From: a virus
Strand: one strand, 5' to 3'
DNA length: 64,000 bases
IMG/VR virus record: IMGVR_UViG_3300025687_000026
Location: 1-64,000 of that record
Part shown: one piece after another, positions 32,367 through 38,930 of the stretch
How the letters are laid out: every line of letters begins with the position of its first letter
How positions within the stretch are numbered: the stretch's first letter is position 1
Made by a program: the position numbers and the translations under genes
Notes under the pieces: generated by a model
What the model was told of the DNA's origin: nothing
Databases searched by the model: none
The model's input: only the letters and a program-made list of their open reading frames with translations

Positions 32367-33309
32367 ACCGACGACACTTGACGAGATAGCGGGGCAGAGT
32401 GCCTTCGTTACCGAGGCTAAGCGTTGGGCAGAACAGGGTGAATATCCACCCGCCGTTCTTGTCCACGGTCCCCCCGGTGTCGGTAAGACCACGGTTGGTA
32501 AGGTGCTCGCTCGTGTATCGCTGGGTGAGTTCTTTGACCCGATGAACTTCATCATAACCAACGCCAGCGACGACCGTGGTATTGACTTCATTCGCAACGA
32601 ACTCAAGCAGTGGGCGACCATTAAGGCGATGGGCGCTGACCGACGGGTCATCTTGCTTGATGAGGCCGATGGCCTCACACCTGCAGCGCAAGATGCGCTG
32701 CGTCAAATTATTGAGTTGTTATCGGACAACTGCTTCTTCATTCTCACAGCCAACGACATCAGCAAGATTCGTCCTGCTATTCAGAGCAGGTGTCTCGTAT
32801 ATGAGTTCAAGCCCATCAGTCCTGAAGATGGGGCTAAGAGACTTGTTGAATTATTCAAAGGACACTTGAGTTGGATTGGTGACAGCGCAACACTCAGCGC
32901 TTGGAATAACACATTCATGCGACTCATGAAGTTCACTGGTGGCGACATGCGAAGCGCTATCGCTATCATGGAGAGTCATGGTGACGCTCCTCTTGTTGCT
33001 CTACAGAAGAGGCTATCCGATGGGGGTAACCCATCACAGGCCGCACTCGCCGCCATCAGTGGTGAGTATGGTGACATGCGTAAGCAATTCTATTCTATGC
33101 TTGACCGAGGGTTATCACTTACCTTCGTCATGCGAACATTCCATGAGAATCTAACCGAGTTCTTTGAGATGGATGCTGATACCACCTTCACGGTGATGGC
33201 CGTGCTTGGTGAGATGGTGCCTCACATGTATGAGTGGCCCATCGGTTCCTATTCCTTCGTGGATTGCCTCGTTGCGAGGCTGAAGAAGGAGGTGCACACA
33301 AATGAGTGA
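32350..33309 (+). CDS. rfcS: Replication factor C small subunit (clamp loader)
   Basis: GPPGVGKT, NASDDRG, ILLDEADGLT..AQ.ALR, SRC, GDMR. Confidence 0.92.
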   Translation: MTVMTEPTTLDEIAGQSAFVTEAKRWAEQGEYPPAVLVHGPPGVGKTTVGKVLARVSLGEFFDPMNFIITNASDDRGIDFIRNELKQWATIKAMGADRRVILLDEADGLTPAAQDALRQIIELLSDNCFFILTANDISKIRPAIQSRCLVYEFKPISPEDGAKRLVELFKGHLSWIGDSATLSAWNNTFMRLMKFTGGDMRSAIAIMESHGDAPLVALQKRLSDGGNPSQAALAAISGEYGDMRKQFYSMLDRGLSLTFVMRTFHENLTEFFEMDADTTFTVMAVLGEMVPHMYEWPIGSYSFVDCLVARLKKEVHTNE

Positions 33310-34648
33310 TGAATACGAAGAGCCGGACTACGGCGAAGACGACATGCCTGAGAAAACGAACGACAGCACCGGACTGCCTTCCGGGGTCACGGAGCGCTTG
33401 GCCAAGTATGCCGAGCGCACGAAGAAGGACATCGCTACGGTAACGCAGCAGTTCCATGACTACATCGCCAACGAATACCTCTGTGAAGATGCCTCGGCTG
33501 AAGATGAGGACCTTCTTGAAGACTGGGCCGAGCAAATGCTCGTTGAAACCCGCAACGAAAGCAGCGGTGGCGGCGGAGCCTACGGTGGCGTGCCCTTCGT
33601 CGGCATGTTCGTCGGCGTCGAACCCAACTCCCGTGACCGTCGTGATGGGCTCGTCAAGCGAGCCAAGCGTGACTTCACCCTTGACGCAGGTGCCGCTGTC
33701 GGTAGTGGTTTCGTGGGTCATTTCACCAAGGGCGATGGCGTGTGGATGCTCAACACCAGCGACGGTGAGCGTCGCACGGAGTTCTCCACTGACGAGATTC
33801 CCGACCACTCGTTCATCGCTGATGGCGAACGCATCTGCTTGCTCACCAAGACAAATCGCCCGAAGGCCATGAGCGTGATGGGGCGCAACTACATCTTCCT
33901 CGGCGCACCTGAGGAGGAGTTCACCAACGACAACGCCATCCAAATGTGGCGACTTGATTGTCAAGGTGAAGACGCCGACATGGTCGTGCGCATCGGGGCA
34001 CCCTGCCGCATCAACGCTCGGCTTCCTAACGAGAACGCCCCCGAAGGTTTCAAGGATGTCTTGAGCACGAGCCTCGGCTTGAAAGACAGCATCGAATACA
34101 CCGACGAGTTCGTCGACAAGGATGTCCGTCCGTTCCTGAACCCGTTCAAGATGTGGGTCGATGGCGAACTCCATGGCCACTACGCTGCGCTTGAAGACCT
34201 CGTGGAAGTGTTCGAGTCCGGCAGCCGAACCTTCACCATCAACGGCGAGCAGGGCAAGTCGGGTCCAATCGTCTTCACCAAGGGCACCGTCAACCGCCTC
34301 TCCTCTGAGGCTCGTGACAGTGACTTCGATGAAGGTAACCGCTCTTACTCGCTCTCTCTAACCTCCAGCGCCCTGCAGAGCATGCACAGCAAGCAGGACC
34401 AGCGTGAAGTCATGTGTTGGATTGGTAGTGCTTGTAACGACCTAACCAATCCCTTCTCCGCTTTCGACGGTGACGAGGAGATTCCCTACGCTGAGGGCTC
34501 AACGGTTCTCGTCTGTGGTCGTATCGCCGTGAAGCGAAAGGAAGGCGTCGACATCCCCAACCTCAAGGTCATGGGTGTCTTTGCTCACCCTCGCCGCATT
34601 CGCCGCCGTGCAACCGGAGGCGACACTGGTCGAGGTCAGTTCGAGTGA
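33302..34648 (+). CDS. Putative RPA-like OB-fold ssDNA-binding protein
   Basis: Acidic 448-aa protein, beta-rich C-terminus, position within replisome operon; no diagnostic motif. Confidence 0.4.
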   Translation: MSDEYEEPDYGEDDMPEKTNDSTGLPSGVTERLAKYAERTKKDIATVTQQFHDYIANEYLCEDASAEDEDLLEDWAEQMLVETRNESSGGGGAYGGVPFVGMFVGVEPNSRDRRDGLVKRAKRDFTLDAGAAVGSGFVGHFTKGDGVWMLNTSDGERRTEFSTDEIPDHSFIADGERICLLTKTNRPKAMSVMGRNYIFLGAPEEEFTNDNAIQMWRLDCQGEDADMVVRIGAPCRINARLPNENAPEGFKDVLSTSLGLKDSIEYTDEFVDKDVRPFLNPFKMWVDGELHGHYAALEDLVEVFESGSRTFTINGEQGKSGPIVFTKGTVNRLSSEARDSDFDEGNRSYSLSLTSSALQSMHSKQDQREVMCWIGSACNDLTNPFSAFDGDEEIPYAEGSTVLVCGRIAVKRKEGVDIPNLKVMGVFAHPRRIRRRATGGDTGRGQFE

Positions 34649-34659
34649 GGTGATGAAGT

Positions 34660-35646
34660 ATGGCTGGATTCGGAAAAACCAAAGAAGCAGAGAAGCAAGA
34701 GGTCGAGCAGGAGGTCCTTGAGGCCACCCCTGCTCACAAGCGCACCGACGCTGACCCTTTCGCTATTCTACAAAAGGAACTGGCGATGATGGACAACACT
34801 CCTCAGACGCACATCTTCATGGGCATCGCTGGTCACGACAACACCGGTAAGACCGCTATCGTGACGGACGCCTTCACCAAGGACGAGCGTGCTCGTGAGA
34901 CTGGTGAGGAACTGTGGATTCTTGACTTCGAGGGTGGCGGTGCCGCCAACAAGTCAGCGTTCCATGCTCACGAAGGTCGCATCAAGTGCTGGGAACCATG
35001 GGTCATGTCCCGTGGCGACCGCACTGCTTACGACTACCCTGCTACTCACGACCGTGTCATGAGCATTGTCCAGTTTGCTGTCGACATCGCTCAGAAGCAG
35101 CGTGACCCTGACTACACCGGCACCCGCCTGTGGGGTCTTCTTGTCACTGGTGTCGACCTGTGGGACAGCGTGTGTGTCAACTGCATGCGTATCGTTGACC
35201 TCAACATCGCCAAGGACGGTATTGAAGCCGCTGACTGGAACAAGAAGGTCGGGCATCAATGGGACTGGGCCATCCGCAAGACTCGCTTCCACCAACTGAC
35301 TGGTCTGTGCCGTGCACTGGTCAAGGCTGGTGTCCGAGTGTTTTGGGAGACGCACCTGCGCCTGACCAACTACTCCTTCGGCAAGAGCGAGGCCGTTGAC
35401 CCATCGTGGCGACCCGACTGGGAGAAGGCCAGCAACAACTTCGTCTATCAAATCCTCATCTGTGAGCGCAAGGATGTGCTGGATGACGAGACGGGTGAAG
35501 TTGTCCGCAGCGAATACCAAGTGACCTTTGACAAGAGCAAGACCAATGCTCGCTTGCAGGGACAAAAGCGAACGACACTCATCACGGAGGCTGGACAGGA
35601 GCCGCAGTGGTTCGGGCTACCCGAACTCTACGACGGCTCACTCTGA
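34660..35646 (+). CDS. RecA-superfamily P-loop ATPase (Sak4/RadB-like recombination protein)
   Basis: GIAGHDNTGKT Walker A, ILDFEGG, downstream VFWETH and KSK motifs. Confidence 0.65.
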   Translation: MAGFGKTKEAEKQEVEQEVLEATPAHKRTDADPFAILQKELAMMDNTPQTHIFMGIAGHDNTGKTAIVTDAFTKDERARETGEELWILDFEGGGAANKSAFHAHEGRIKCWEPWVMSRGDRTAYDYPATHDRVMSIVQFAVDIAQKQRDPDYTGTRLWGLLVTGVDLWDSVCVNCMRIVDLNIAKDGIEAADWNKKVGHQWDWAIRKTRFHQLTGLCRALVKAGVRVFWETHLRLTNYSFGKSEAVDPSWRPDWEKASNNFVYQILICERKDVLDDETGEVVRSEYQVTFDKSKTNARLQGQKRTTLITEAGQEPQWFGLPELYDGSL

Positions 35647-35652
35647 GACACA

Positions 35653-35782
35653 CTCACACATGGGGGTTTGCCTGAATAAAAACGGTTATGGTTTGTTTCT
35701 TCCCAGCGTGCATCCCATCGCTTGCTGGTTGTTTGAGGCAGGGGGCAGGGGTGCCTCCGAACCGTTCCCCCACCCGTGTGAG
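35653..35782. ncRNA. Candidate structured RNA (multibranch fold)
   Basis: Nested pairings CTCACAC/GTGTGAG, TGGGGG/CCCCCA, AACGGTT/AACCGTT, CCAGC/GCTGG, GAGGCA/TGCCTC fill the intergenic gap. Confidence 0.55.
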
Positions 35783-35800
35783 AAAAAAAGGTGATAGTAA

Positions 35801-36556
35801 ATGACAGAAGTAACGATTAACCGCAAGCAGGCACTGGGCTTCCTTTCCTCGTTCGGCAACAATGTCGGCGACCTCAAGGTCACCTTTGCCCTTGATGGTA
35901 AGATGACGGCCACGGTGGCCTTCATGTCACACTACTTTCACAAGGAGCGTCAGGTCGAGGGCACTGTGAAGACAGCGGGCACCATCGACATCAGCGAGTT
36001 AGAGAAGGCATGTAAGTTCCTGAAGAGCGCCAAGGGTGACACGGTGACCCTGAAGCAAATGGGTAGCGGTAAGACCCTCTACATCAACGCCGGGACCACG
36101 AAGGTGCAGTTTCCGAGCAGCACGGCCGTTGTTTCCTACAGCAAGGTCCCGCTCATCGAGCGTCTCATCAATCAGACCATTGACTCGCAGTGGACAAAGT
36201 GGAGCACCTTTGACTTGGAAGTCAGCGGCACGGTGAACATCACCGACCTGCTGACGGTGTCGAAGATGCGAGGCATCCTTAACGCCAGCCCTGTCTTCAG
36301 AATCATCGCTAATGCAGAAGAGGCTGAACTTAGCATCACTGCAGGAAAGCGTCATGAGGCTCGGTTGTTCAACACAGTCACGCTGACGGACCCTGTCGGT
36401 CCCAACGCCAGCATCGAGTCTACCTACGGGCCATGGCTGATGGAAACCATCGGGCTGCTGAGCGAAGGTCCTGCTGAGATTCATTTTGGCGCAAGCACCA
36501 TCCTTGCAGTGCGACAGAACGCTGACTTGCTTATCGTGGTTGACCAAAGAGCGTGA
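35801..36556 (+). CDS. Putative DNA sliding clamp (PCNA-like)
   Basis: 251 aa, alternating alpha/beta pattern, between RFC and PolB; sequence divergent. Confidence 0.55.
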   Translation: MTEVTINRKQALGFLSSFGNNVGDLKVTFALDGKMTATVAFMSHYFHKERQVEGTVKTAGTIDISELEKACKFLKSAKGDTVTLKQMGSGKTLYINAGTTKVQFPSSTAVVSYSKVPLIERLINQTIDSQWTKWSTFDLEVSGTVNITDLLTVSKMRGILNASPVFRIIANAEEAELSITAGKRHEARLFNTVTLTDPVGPNASIESTYGPWLMETIGLLSEGPAEIHFGASTILAVRQNADLLIVVDQRA

Positions 36557-36560
36557 TAGC

Positions 36561-38930
36561 GTGATTGTCGACTGGTTCTATCCTGAGTGGTCCGACTCGT
36601 TCGGAGCACCATCCCTCTACCTTAGGACGAGGGGTAAGGACGGAGCCTTGGTCACACGCACCGTCCATCCTGAAGACGATGACTACCTGCGTCCATTCTG
36701 TTGGATTCCATCCAACACACCTCAGTGGAAGTTGAATCGCTTAGCCAATCGCATTCCTGCTGCCGATGTCCTCTACAAAGAGAAGGCGACAGGCCGTGAC
36801 GGTCGCGCTCTCATCAAGGTCGAGGTCGACAAGCCGAACGACCTTTGGGAAGTCAAGGACCTCATGGACACTTATGAAGCAGACTTGAACTACCTTGAGC
36901 AAATCCTGCTACACTTCTACCCTGAGAAAATCCCTGAGTTCCACCCTCGTGTGTGGTTCTTCGACCTTGAGTGGGACCCGAAGCAAGACTTCACGACCGT
37001 CATGGCCGTGGTTGACAGTCACGCTGATGTGCCTGTGGCCTTCGCTTGGAAGCGCGGCATCGACACGATGAGTGTCACCTATGTCGAGCGTGAGGGTGGC
37101 TACATGCTTCATCAGTTCGGCAGCGAAGCCGCCATGCACGAAGCGTTTCTTCAACACATGGAGGCCTGTGACCCCGATATTCTCGTGGCTCACGCTATCA
37201 TGTGGGCCGACTTACCGCACTTGCTGCGCCGACTGGAGAACCCTGACCGCCTCTCCCCGTTGGGTCAAGTGGTCAAGCCGTTCAAGGACAGTGGCTACAA
37301 GGACACACAGCAGCCCATCAAAGGACGCCTCTGCTGGGACTCAGCAGCGCACTGGAAGAGCGGTAGTGGCTTTGAGACACTTTGGCAAAAGTCCGGGCGT
37401 GGGCAATTACCTAACCGCAAGTTGAACACCATCGCTGGTCTGTTGGACCTTGGCTCCAAACTGACGGATGAAATCGAAGGCATGACGGTGTTCAATGGTT
37501 GGTATGACCACTACGACCACTTCGTAGACTACTGTGTTCGTGACACTACACTACTCTCAGCAATCGCTGAGCGCCTCAACGCCATCGACTTCTTCGTCGC
37601 TATGCAACAACTGTGCGGTGTCTCATGGGGAAGCACGCACAAGGTGACTCGTTACTTCCGTGGCCTCATCGGTAGGCGCACGGACCTCAAAGCACCGAGC
37701 GCACGCAACAAGAATCGTGTGGACATGCAAGCGGCCTACATCCCTGACCCCATTCCCGGCCGTCATGTTGGCGTTGCGCTGGTGGACTACGCCGCACTCT
37801 ACCCGAACATCATTCTCAGCGACAACCTCTCCTATGAGACGAAGCGTGACGGTCCGGGGCCGGGTATCAAAAGCCTCGGCAACGGAACGCACTGGGACCA
37901 AACCAAGAAGGGTCTACTCCCATCCATCGTGGAAGAGATGCTGGAACTCAGAAAACGCTACAAGCAACTGATGAAAGAGGCTCAGAGCGAGGAAGAGCGC
38001 CTCGGTTACAACATGCTGCAGACTGCCGCTAAGGTCGCTGTCAACGCCCTCTACGGCATGTGCGGCATGAAGGCTGTCGACGGTATGTGGATTGACAACG
38101 ACATCGCTTCCTCCATCACCTTCCGTGGGCGTGAGGCTATCCGCCACCTGATGAGCGAGAGCGAGGAGATGGGCTACAAGTCCCTCTTCGGCCACACTGA
38201 CTCCGCCTTTATCCAAGTCCCATTCGAGGAGGCTCATACCCTCGCTGAGCACTTGACAAGCACGGCTCAGTCTAAGTTGGACCTGTCTCACATGGATGTG
38301 GAACTGGAAGCCTACTTCGACTACTGGACCACGGCCCCTGTCAAGAACCGCTACTTCGGTTACAAGGTGTGGCCTGAGAGCGACGCAGGGCAACTAAAGG
38401 TATCAGGCTATGAAATCAAAGCATCCAGTTCTGCAGCCATCACGAAGGAGATTCAGGAGACAGCCATGCGCCTCATCGGTCACGGAGCCGAAGAGGAAGA
38501 AGTGACTGAGACGCTGCGTGCATTGTCCCTTGCCGTCAAGAACGGCGAGGTGCCCATCAAAGACACGGCGTGTTCCACTCGTTTAACCAAGGACCCGACC
38601 GACTACGATTCGCCCACGCCGGGAGCCAAGGCTGCTTTATATTACAACCAACACTGCGGTGGCGAATTATGGCGCAAGGGCGACAGCGTGACATGGACCT
38701 ATGTCAAAGGTGTCAACGAGGGTGTTGCTGACTTTGTCACCATCAAGGGTCAGGATTCACCTGTCGCCTTCATCGCCTTCCGAGAGGTAGAAGAACTGTC
38801 AAACTACATCGTGGACTGGGATAAGGTCCTTGATGTGTTAGTGAAGTCAAAACTCAAGCGTCTCTATGAGAGCGTGGGTTGGGACATCGCCGCTGCAGCG
38901 GGAGATGTGGTTCCCAAAAGTTACTGGTGA
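36561..38930 (+). CDS. polB: Family B DNA polymerase
   Basis: Exo FDLEW / YCVRD; pol DYAALYPNI, KVAVNALYG, FGHTDS, KNRY; start moved to GTG 36561. Confidence 0.95.
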   Translation: MIVDWFYPEWSDSFGAPSLYLRTRGKDGALVTRTVHPEDDDYLRPFCWIPSNTPQWKLNRLANRIPAADVLYKEKATGRDGRALIKVEVDKPNDLWEVKDLMDTYEADLNYLEQILLHFYPEKIPEFHPRVWFFDLEWDPKQDFTTVMAVVDSHADVPVAFAWKRGIDTMSVTYVEREGGYMLHQFGSEAAMHEAFLQHMEACDPDILVAHAIMWADLPHLLRRLENPDRLSPLGQVVKPFKDSGYKDTQQPIKGRLCWDSAAHWKSGSGFETLWQKSGRGQLPNRKLNTIAGLLDLGSKLTDEIEGMTVFNGWYDHYDHFVDYCVRDTTLLSAIAERLNAIDFFVAMQQLCGVSWGSTHKVTRYFRGLIGRRTDLKAPSARNKNRVDMQAAYIPDPIPGRHVGVALVDYAALYPNIILSDNLSYETKRDGPGPGIKSLGNGTHWDQTKKGLLPSIVEEMLELRKRYKQLMKEAQSEEERLGYNMLQTAAKVAVNALYGMCGMKAVDGMWIDNDIASSITFRGREAIRHLMSESEEMGYKSLFGHTDSAFIQVPFEEAHTLAEHLTSTAQSKLDLSHMDVELEAYFDYWTTAPVKNRYFGYKVWPESDAGQLKVSGYEIKASSSAAITKEIQETAMRLIGHGAEEEEVTETLRALSLAVKNGEVPIKDTACSTRLTKDPTDYDSPTPGAKAALYYNQHCGGELWRKGDSVTWTYVKGVNEGVADFVTIKGQDSPVAFIAFREVEELSNYIVDWDKVLDVLVKSKLKRLYESVGWDIAAAAGDVVPKSYW

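Follow-up and report, generated by a model that had tools for sequence, protein, structure and literature searches.

A conserved, pseudoknotted sense-strand RNA within the replication genes of a magrovirus-like virus and its relatives

To our knowledge, hardly any structured regulatory or catalytic RNA is known from archaeal viruses, such RNAs are rare across archaea, and we know of no riboswitch-like junction or pseudoknot aptamers from archaeal viruses. The systems used for comparison here are the tRNA acceptor/T minihelix substrates of RNase P and tRNA-like structures (the turnip yellow mosaic virus tRNA-like structure, mascRNA), together with hepatitis delta virus (HDV)-like ribozymes, flaviviral exonuclease-resistant RNAs (xrRNAs), riboswitch aptamers and the shunt on the cauliflower mosaic virus (CaMV) 35S RNA. 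The element that we describe, at positions 35653-35782 of a 64,000-nt stretch of viral DNA (positions 1 to 64,000 of the IMG/VR virus record IMGVR_UViG_3300025687_000026; below, the window), resembles each of these in part. It lies between the gene for a RecA/RadA-like ATPase and those for a PCNA-like sliding clamp and a family B DNA polymerase (PolB), as an earlier note made from the sequence had placed it, in a gap of 154 nt (35647-35800) that runs from the UGA (35644-35646) of a 328-aa open reading frame (ORF) to the start (35801) of a 251-aa ORF. This gap almost certainly holds a member of a new family of sense-strand, pseudoknotted RNAs, a real structure under selection.

Magroviruses, the viruses of uncultured Marine Group II (MGII) archaea, are among the most abundant viruses in the surface ocean (PMC5434244). 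The marine virus of the window (~107 kb) is magrovirus-like: its gene set, its genome size of roughly 100 kb and the chaperonin that relatives have in the replicative block match the published description, from which we infer an MGII host (PMC5434244). A text search of magrovirus papers, including Philosof 2017 (PMC5434244), finds no mention of non-coding RNAs, riboswitches or intergenic elements, and a literature search found no description of the element's RNA. Rfam 15 at gathering thresholds gives no match over the whole window, and at E up to 10 on positions 35400-36000 only PyrR207 appears, with 16.6 bits (gathering 60) on the opposite strand. Conserved structured viral RNAs are known as a general kind, but the fold and the host range of this element are new, and we treat it as a new RNA family. 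The earlier suggestion of a novel structured RNA is thus borne out, both by the lack of a matching Rfam family and by the conservation of the element, with covariation, in 38 distinct sequences.

These sequences were collected in two ways. The protein encoded upstream led to 47 related IMG/VR loci. The element can be recognised in the gap after the RecA-like gene in 29 of them. Another 13, more distant, have the RecA-like and the next gene abutting, with 0-4 nt between them, and in the remaining five the gap holds an unrelated small ORF instead. A DNA pattern taken from the element's conserved ends was used to find further copies in IMG/VR, metagenomes and species genomes. Candidates were judged with a covariance model, R1, built from 12 members with the window outside the seed; it scores the window at 56.9 bits (E 3e-12) and gives exactly one match per locus. 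From the metagenome scan, 13 of the 80 matches listed pass the model. The scan of 185,579 species genomes gave 112 matches, about the chance level by our estimate, and among the 80 listed only one, L082, passes; apart from it no cellular homologue appears among the matches listed, although a scan with an exact pattern could miss diverged relatives. L082 is a 30-kb contig (NZQM01000111.1) labelled as a metagenome-assembled genome of Parvibaculum sp. (an alphaproteobacterial bin). Its RecA-like, PCNA and PolB proteins are 78%, 53% and 64% identical in amino acids to those of the window, with the element in between, and because it carries this module of RecA-like gene, RNA, PCNA and PolB it is almost certainly viral and most likely mis-binned. 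By the covariance model the family comprises 38 distinct sequences of about 105-170 nt, one copy per virus; neither the window nor the whole 107-kb virus record has a second copy, and a phage DNA similarity search returned nothing.

Single-sequence folds of 33 members repeatedly give a common architecture, in the order P0, CA/CCU internal loop, P1 (G5:C5), pseudoknot, A-rich linker, P2, a variable P3 and P4. In the window, where all parts lie on the plus strand, the outermost helix P0 pairs CUCACAC (35653-35659) with GUGUGAG (35776-35782), as seen in the minimum-free-energy (MFE) fold and in the own-partner test described below. Inside it, an unpaired A (35660), defined by column counts, belongs to a conserved CA-U motif before the G run, and the alignment columns show a conserved unpaired CC(U/C) (35773-35775) after P1 on the opposite side. 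P1 pairs UGGGGG (35661-35666) with CCCCCA (35767-35772), by the MFE fold and the alignment. The 5' strand of the pseudoknot, UUUGCCU (35667-35673, with the core UGCCU at 35669-35673), pairs with AGGCA (35736-35740) by the helix parse of all members and the own-partner test. The A-rich linker GAAUAAA (35674-35680; consensus U-A-A-A just 5' of P2 in the alignment columns) leads to P2, in which AACGGUU (35681-35687) pairs with AACCGUU (35760-35766), as RNAalifold, the alignment and compensatory changes indicate. P2 encloses the variable domain P3 (35688-35734), with a hairpin of CCAGC (35703-35707) and GCUGG (35724-35728), and the hairpin P4 (35741-35758), GGGGGCA-GGGG-UGCCUCC with arms at 35741-35747 and 35752-35758, both by the MFE fold and the helix parse. 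Across relatives P3 varies from 15 to 78 nt, and P4 has a purine-rich 5' arm, a 3' arm of the CCUC type and, in most relatives, a long, U-rich loop.

The structured element fills the gap in the MFE fold, in keeping with the earlier note, which had it almost fully occupied, and all five helices listed there are present in the sequence and in that fold: P0, P1, P2 and the P3 hairpin with the limits just given, and a fifth at 35735-35740/35752-35757. The last, GAGGCA/UGCCUC, is an alternative register that exists in the window sequence alone, the family P4 being 35741-35747/35752-35758. The window has GGCAGG twice (35737-35742 and 35744-35749) and UGCCU twice (35669-35673 and 35752-35756), so that its pseudoknot and P4 can take two mutually exclusive registers; the closest relative, L207, lacks this duplication. 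Of the pseudoknot that had been suggested between UUUGCCU and a G-rich hairpin loop, the 5' strand does take part, and its partner by homology is AGGCA rather than the loop.

The helices are supported by covariation. RNAalifold applied to a plain MAFFT alignment of 12 members predicts P1 and P2, with six pairs kept via two-sided changes. The alignment of all 38 sequences was fitted to the model, and hence its pairing scores are not model-independent; in it standard pairs occupy 92.8% of cells, against 76.4% after shuffling, and the covariation score is 0.512, compared with 0.194 for shuffled alignments (none of 500 reaches the observed value) and 0.07-0.125 for slid registers. For P2, 94.4% of cells are paired, with two-sided changes at six of seven pairs, and in P4 two-sided changes occur at all five pairs, one of which is G·U in 17 and GC in 13 of the 38 members. 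Because the alignment had been fitted, an alignment-free own-partner test was added, in which the own 3' strand of a helix, taken from segments defined by position, competes with those of 21 other groups. This gives z values of 4.9 for the pseudoknot, 10.8 for P2, 5.5 for P4 and 5.8-6.3 for P0; at most one in 50,000 permutations is as good, and for P0 none of 50,000.

The clearest single case is that of L207, whose flanking proteins are 95% (RecA-like), 88% (PCNA) and 91% identical to those of the window: its P2 reads AACAGUC/GACUGUU, which differs from that of the window by two compensatory changes. P2 lies directly 5' of the C run and has 6-8 bp (10 bp in L053). Its variants include AACGGUU/AACCGUU, GACGCGCG/UGCGCGUC, AAGGAAG/CUUCCUU, AAAUUCAG/CUGAAUUU, AAGUCACA/UGUGAUUU, AAGAUAC/GUAUCUU and AAGGGCA/UGCCCUU. 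The pseudoknot, which in all members joins the bases right after the G run to those directly 5' of P4, is equally varied: UGCCU/AGGCA in the window, and elsewhere UUGGCA/UGCCAG, GCGGC/GUCGC, UUGGGA/UCCCAA, ACACA/UGUGU, UUGUC/GACAA, UGGUAG/CUACCA (L240) and UACUAU/AUAGUA (G007). Even P1 has its compensated exceptions, GGGAG/CUCCC (L007, L009), GAGGG/CCCUC (G007) and GGAGAAAAGG/CCUUUUCUC (L021, L024).

Folding energy tells a different story from covariation. The gap has an MFE of -54.8 kcal/mol, with a z of -1.63 against dinucleotide shuffles (11 of 200 as good), and 22 non-redundant homologues give a mean z of -1.17 on the plus and -1.58 on the minus strand. Since these scores are unremarkable, the energy is no evidence for the element and does not separate the strands; of two signs anticipated in the earlier note, compensatory changes are abundant in the homologues, whereas the energy is not clearly better than that of shuffles. 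Unremarkable energies are also what chance complementarity in a functionless spacer would give, an explanation that is effectively refuted by the persistence of the structure across viruses with PolB only 27% identical and by compensatory changes in four helices.

The strand is indicated by the non-standard pairs: G·U cells number 56 on the sense strand and A·C cells 11, so that the strand that folds is the sense-strand RNA. This bears on the suggestion, made in the earlier note, of a structure in single-stranded DNA such as a priming site. A DNA-level role (priming site, origin or packaging signal) would suit the position inside the replication module, the AT-rich stretch of about 280 nt behind one copy (G007, below) and the about equal folding of the minus strand by energy. 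We nevertheless consider it very improbable given the G·U excess, with the P4 pair that is G·U in 17 of 38 members becoming A·C on the other strand; moreover, the element and the genes are always oriented alike, and covariation of the pseudoknot and P0 fits a tertiary fold of RNA. There is no GC-skew turn at 35.7 kb of the window, and an origin of replication is not supported. The element is non-coding, since at least eight of 22 representatives have stops in all three frames. An 88-aa ORF running through it in the +1 frame (35528-35794, TTG start) is spurious, as homologues have stops in that frame, and results from the G/C/U-rich composition of the structured sequence.

The most conserved bases cluster around P1. 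Before the G run, C-3 is found in 37, A-2 in 38 and U-1 in 35 of the 38 sequences; the GGGGG of P1 is invariant at four positions and present in 36 at the fourth G, and the CCCCC likewise, with 36 at the second C. The UUU after the G run is conserved in 38, 34 and 38 sequences, the U-A-A-A at the end of the linker in 33, 36, 38 and 31, the A-A that opens P2 in 32 and 37, and the U-U that closes it in 38 and 33. The base after CCCCC is G in 18, A in 16 and U in four sequences, followed by an unpaired CC in all 38 and a U in 33. A G5:C5 helix that is invariant in sequence, with invariant unpaired bases on both sides, argues for recognition by a conserved macromolecule rather than for a switching helix.

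The surroundings of the element are far less constant. The usual order is RecA/RadA-like ATPase, RNA, PCNA-like clamp and then PolB, and in many copies a Cys-containing ORF of 67-82 aa or another small ORF stands between the RNA and PCNA. The element is kept where the RecA-like protein is only 37-51% identical (L057, L062, L072, L248, L257). In the lineage of L051, L053, L064 and L070 (PolB 27% identical) the upstream gene is an unrelated ORF of 272-303 aa, and a 110-aa ORF and a DNA methylase follow, with PolB 2 kb further. In L254 the copy (L254:2011-2216) is separated by 98 nt from an ORF upstream and by 30 nt from a tRNA-Ile(UAU) downstream, with no flanking ORFs close by. The copy in G007 (L316:1505-1631 on the minus strand, equal to G007:C1:4615-4745) lies 13 nt after a 70-aa Zn-ribbon ORF behind the chaperonin gene, at the end of the replicative block and about 10 kb past the RecA-like, PCNA and PolB genes, of which the first two abut; it is divergent but fully compensated, and has neither P0 nor the CC. 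As the neighbours vary in this way, from RecA-like gene to unrelated ORF, tRNA and the end of the replicative block, the element is a self-contained module, carried inside magrovirus-like replicative-gene transcripts, and its function is not tied to one downstream gene.

The module also appears to have moved. Between the window and L001 the nucleotide identity is 87% in the upstream gene, 80% in PCNA and 59% in the element, and between L001 and L020 it is 84% upstream, 57% in PCNA, 94% in the element and 90% in the small ORF. These conflicting identities of element and flanks indicate that the RNA cassette has been swapped between lineages by recombination.

Because the neighbours vary while P1 and its flanking unpaired bases are invariant and resemble an acceptor end, we place first a role in cis on the fate of the RNA, its processing or stability, with recognition at the acceptor-like P1. 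Our probability for this reading is roughly 0.3, and it should be taken as a leading guess. P1, with U at -1 and the unpaired R-CC, would be the docking or processing point for a conserved host macromolecule, and a concrete candidate for that factor would be an RNase-P-type endonuclease. What is left would be the compact pseudoknotted core, a stable fragment or nuclease-resistant cap that would separate and stabilise the cistrons, and where the element sits between two genes P0 would bring the upstream stop and the next ribosome-binding site together, keeping the coupling seen in relatives that have no RNA.

The resemblance to a tRNA acceptor end as seen by RNase P is only a lead, drawn from general knowledge of such substrates. 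The features that an RNase P substrate of this kind would share with the element are a G-C pair at the start of the helix (38 of 38), U at -1 (35 of 38) and an unpaired purine (34 of 38) followed by CC. As at an acceptor end, the G-C-rich helix starts at a G preceded by U; P1 (5 bp) and P2 (mostly 6-8 bp) give about 12 stacked pairs along one continuous 3' strand, leader and trailer pair (P0), and the L254 copy stands near a tRNA. The differences are considerable, since the element has no cloverleaf, T loop or anticodon arm, its 5-bp helix branches into a pseudoknot, and U follows the CC. The element is not a tRNA, as the earlier note had already judged: ARAGORN finds no tRNA or tmRNA in the window, and did find the tRNA-Ile next to the L254 copy.

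Several observations weigh against a role in RNA fate. The acceptor likeness is partial, given the lack of cloverleaf and T loop, the negative ARAGORN result, the U after the CC and the missing CC in the copies of L021, L024 and G007. The invariance of P1 and the CC is in part due to the search pattern, which demanded those bases; C, A, G, G and both C's are also invariant in the plain MAFFT alignment of 33 sequences, most of them found via the protein. The complete relatives G005 and G006 have no detectable copy, and hence the element is dispensable in some lineages. Lastly, a simple processing signal would not explain what the pseudoknot, the A-rich linker and P4 are for.

The order of strands, PKa, P2a, P3, PKb, P4 and P2b, is that of the nested double pseudoknot of HDV-like ribozymes, and the PKa-P2a-hairpin-PKb-hairpin-P2b order is shared with flaviviral xrRNAs, as is the viral and, for some xrRNAs, intergenic setting. 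Unlike these RNAs, the element has no conserved catalytic C, no equivalents of L3 or P1.1, no xrRNA junction signature and no Rfam match, and it adds P1 and P0 enclosing the knot, an A-rich linker of 8 nt and a long pseudoknot (4-7 bp). With the defining conserved features absent, we place it outside both families. Specifically, as an HDV-like ribozyme it can be rejected, because the gap between P4 and P2 is 0-4 nt without a conserved base, the first hairpin is variable (15-78 nt) and HDV-type Rfam models are silent. A new class of self-cleaving ribozyme, cutting the polycistronic replication mRNA between cistrons, would suit the viral intergenic setting typical of small ribozymes, the HDV-like topology and the invariant unpaired bases beside helices. 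We regard it as improbable: the ribozyme models of Rfam give no match, even with E up to 10, conservation is the reverse of that in HDV-like ribozymes (a variable first hairpin and no conserved C between P4 and P2), and a contig from an RNA library passes the 5' boundary uncut, although this last point is weak. New ribozyme classes are, as far as we know, rare. Covariance models for hammerhead, twister, pistol and hatchet ribozymes gave no match, in line with the earlier remark that no hammerhead core could be seen.

Two further motifs were considered and dismissed. In the case of an archaeal bulge-helix-bulge intron, a helix of 5-6 bp, instead of four, separates the CC(U) bulge from the UUU strand, and the outer loop is 1-2 x 2-3. 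As for a kink-turn, the G and U after the CC(U) bulge face A and C, so that an A·G second pair is not possible.

The position of the element relative to the flanking genes is regular in most loci, where it lies 0-8 nt after the stop codon and a few nt before the ribosome-binding site. In 32 of the 33 loci analysed the stop codon of a long upstream ORF, mostly UGA, stands 7-16 nt ahead of the G run (L062 is cut off just upstream), and the distance from the C run to the next start is usually 16-34 nt. One strand of P0 directly follows the stop and the other directly precedes the next ribosome-binding site; in the class with 16-17 nt spacing this 3' strand (UUGAG) overlaps the ribosome-binding site itself, GAGGUGAU. 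The two copies that no ORF of at least 60 aa closely follows, L254 and G007, have a weak P0 or none. This fits the interpretation that the functional core consists of P1, the pseudoknot, P2 and P4, with P0 as an adaptation to a place between coupled genes. By general knowledge the arrangement also recalls the CaMV 35S RNA shunt and translational coupling, as the stop lies 7-16 nt before P1, P0 sets the ribosome-binding site beside the stop, and the genes overlap or abut in relatives that lack the RNA; it departs from the CaMV type in having a prokaryote-type ribosome-binding site, and the idea would cover P0 and P1, not the conserved core. A stimulator of stop-codon readthrough or frameshifting was rejected, since the spacing fits but the in-frame extensions are only 6-13 codons long and have non-homologous ends.

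Such a position invites the reading of a sensor or regulator in cis, in which the junction of P1, pseudoknot and P2 would bind a small molecule or a protein and stabilisation of P1 and P0 would alter translation (re)initiation or transcription of PCNA and PolB. Like riboswitch aptamers, the element has a complex pseudoknotted fold with a conserved core, unpaired conserved bases clustered at the junction, covarying stems and a variable peripheral hairpin, and in three diverged lineages it mostly lies just upstream of a start codon (16-34 nt), ahead of PolB within the replicative block. In the 16-17-nt class, where P0 overlaps the ribosome-binding site, a ribosome parked at the stop raises the predicted accessibility of the site modestly, from 0.28-0.43 to 0.45-0.55. 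Over all modelled loci, however, the mean unpaired probability of the ribosome-binding site is 0.52 with and 0.52 without a ribosome at the stop (p 0.42), and that of the window is about 0.8 in both modelled states, hence not sequestered. A general switch by occlusion of the site, opened by a ribosome at the stop, is thereby rejected, as predicted accessibility does not change. No riboswitch-type conserved expression platform and no coherent set of downstream genes were found, accessibility being in general independent of the fold and the genes varied. Directly downstream stand PCNA, the 67-82-aa Cys ORF, a 110-aa ORF, a 151-aa ORF, a tRNA or an AT-rich region, and the G007 copy is far behind RecA-like, PCNA and PolB genes. 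The sequence of P1 is invariant, unlike that of a typical switching helix, and no consistent terminator is found 3' of the element. A sensor is doubtful, though in our view only slightly less probable than a role in RNA fate. The narrower proposal in the earlier note, a cis-regulator of replication genes, has lost ground as far as a dedicated regulator of the clamp and PolB is concerned, since relatives also have the RNA ahead of other genes, next to a tRNA or last in the replicative block.

The same independence of neighbours, with one copy in a non-coding stretch by a tRNA gene (L254) and another at the end of the replicative block (G007), could point to a stable non-coding RNA that is cut from the operon transcript and acts in trans. 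It might, for instance, engage a host enzyme or defence as a decoy or tRNA-like mimic, or serve as the RNA component of a viral ribonucleoprotein; in one variant the pseudoknot strands could pair between molecules. The single copy per genome, the swapping of the cassette between lineages and the ends that resemble a tRNA acceptor end are in keeping with such an RNA. We judge it rather unlikely, given that in most loci the element has neither a promoter nor a terminator to itself. Lying so close to the stop codon and the ribosome-binding site, it would need precise excision; the covariation of P0 suggests that flanking mRNA bases belong to the functional fold, and complete relatives have lost the element.

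Whichever role applies, five helices, a pseudoknot and a near-invariant junction persist across lineages with polymerases 27% identical. Constraint of this kind is usual in riboswitch aptamers, ribozymes and RNAs that dock onto conserved host machines. It is conceivable, though we would not call it probable, that archaeal viruses possess a new functional class of RNA and that the element is its first member, be it a ligand-sensing riboswitch, a self-cleaving ribozyme, or an exonuclease-resistant or tRNA-mimicking RNA that exploits host RNA processing to control replisome genes. At about 110-130 nt the element is short enough for direct study in vitro without culture of the host, and such work would open a way into the gene expression of a virus and host that are not in culture.

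The genes on both sides of the element belong to a replication module. The upstream gene (34660-35646, plus strand) was assigned as a RecA/RadA-like ATPase of 328 aa from its ORF, a Walker-A-like motif (GHDNTGKT in the family consensus) and Foldseek: the AlphaFold model has low confidence (pLDDT 65), its best Foldseek matches are RecA filaments (E 1e-6), and the protein has no match in Pfam, PHROG or NCBIfam. A RadA-like ATPase has been reported as magrovirus-encoded (PMC5434244). Downstream, a ribosome-binding site (AGGUGAU, 35789-35795) precedes the AUG (35801-35803) of the PCNA-like sliding clamp (251 aa, 35801-36556, plus strand), whose predicted structure (pLDDT 91.8) has archaeal PCNAs as top Foldseek matches (E about 1e-12). 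The PolB gene follows at 36486-38930 on the plus strand (Pfam DNA_pol_B, 2.5e-38); the closest cultured relatives of its product are those of haloarchaeal tailed viruses, at 24% identity. Also in the module are a primase-like gene and genes for a clamp-loader ATPase and a PD-(D/E)XK nuclease. A 448-aa protein, whose gene (33302-34648) separates the clamp loader from the RecA-like gene, is kept in all related replication modules at 28-86% identity, and Pfam, PHROG and NCBIfam give no match for it.

A promoter-like 14-mer, TTCACTACTTAAAG, occurs 13 times between 9443 and 32334, all on the plus strand, against 0.18 copies expected, and is probably the early or replicative promoter of the virus. 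Its last copy (32321) stands just before the clamp-loader gene, and the element therefore probably lies within one polycistronic transcript. Metatranscriptome cover comes from short assembled contigs of relatives in two runs, in which RNA ends and levels cannot be read and uncovered parts are uninformative; one contig, from a ~93% relative, extends out of the RecA-like gene to 50 nt inside the element, a weak hint that the two are co-transcribed. In L254, TTCACTC motifs resembling TTCACTACTTAAAG lie 40-50 nt before the RNA copy and just before the tRNA; in the L064 group no promoter-like motif is repeated 3' of the element. The L254 contig shares only an exonuclease gene with the virus of the window and has glycosyltransferase and GDP-mannose dehydratase genes.

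The slot 3' of the RNA is a hot spot for small inserted genes. The 67-82-aa ORF, missing from the window, begins MSKWKxWKK..., has one Cys-x2-Cys-Gly-Gly motif and ends in KPRKYRG; it is found in L001 (2400-2623), with equivalents in L002/L003, L005, L007, L009, L020, L022, L023, L038, L207, L240, L247 and L267. L018 has a different ORF in this place and L037 one of 151 aa. Pfam returned nothing for the small ORFs after the RNA, as for the 448-aa neighbour, and the Zn-ribbon ORF of G007 has no homology to the small Cys ORF that follows other copies. Behind the G007 copy, the AT-rich stretch of about 280 nt has only short possible ORFs and leads to convergent tail genes. Finally, the RecA-like gene of L045 matches in two pieces, with about 330 nt between them (L045:3237-3569) that other members do not have, and this extra stretch could be an intein, an intron-like insertion or an added domain.

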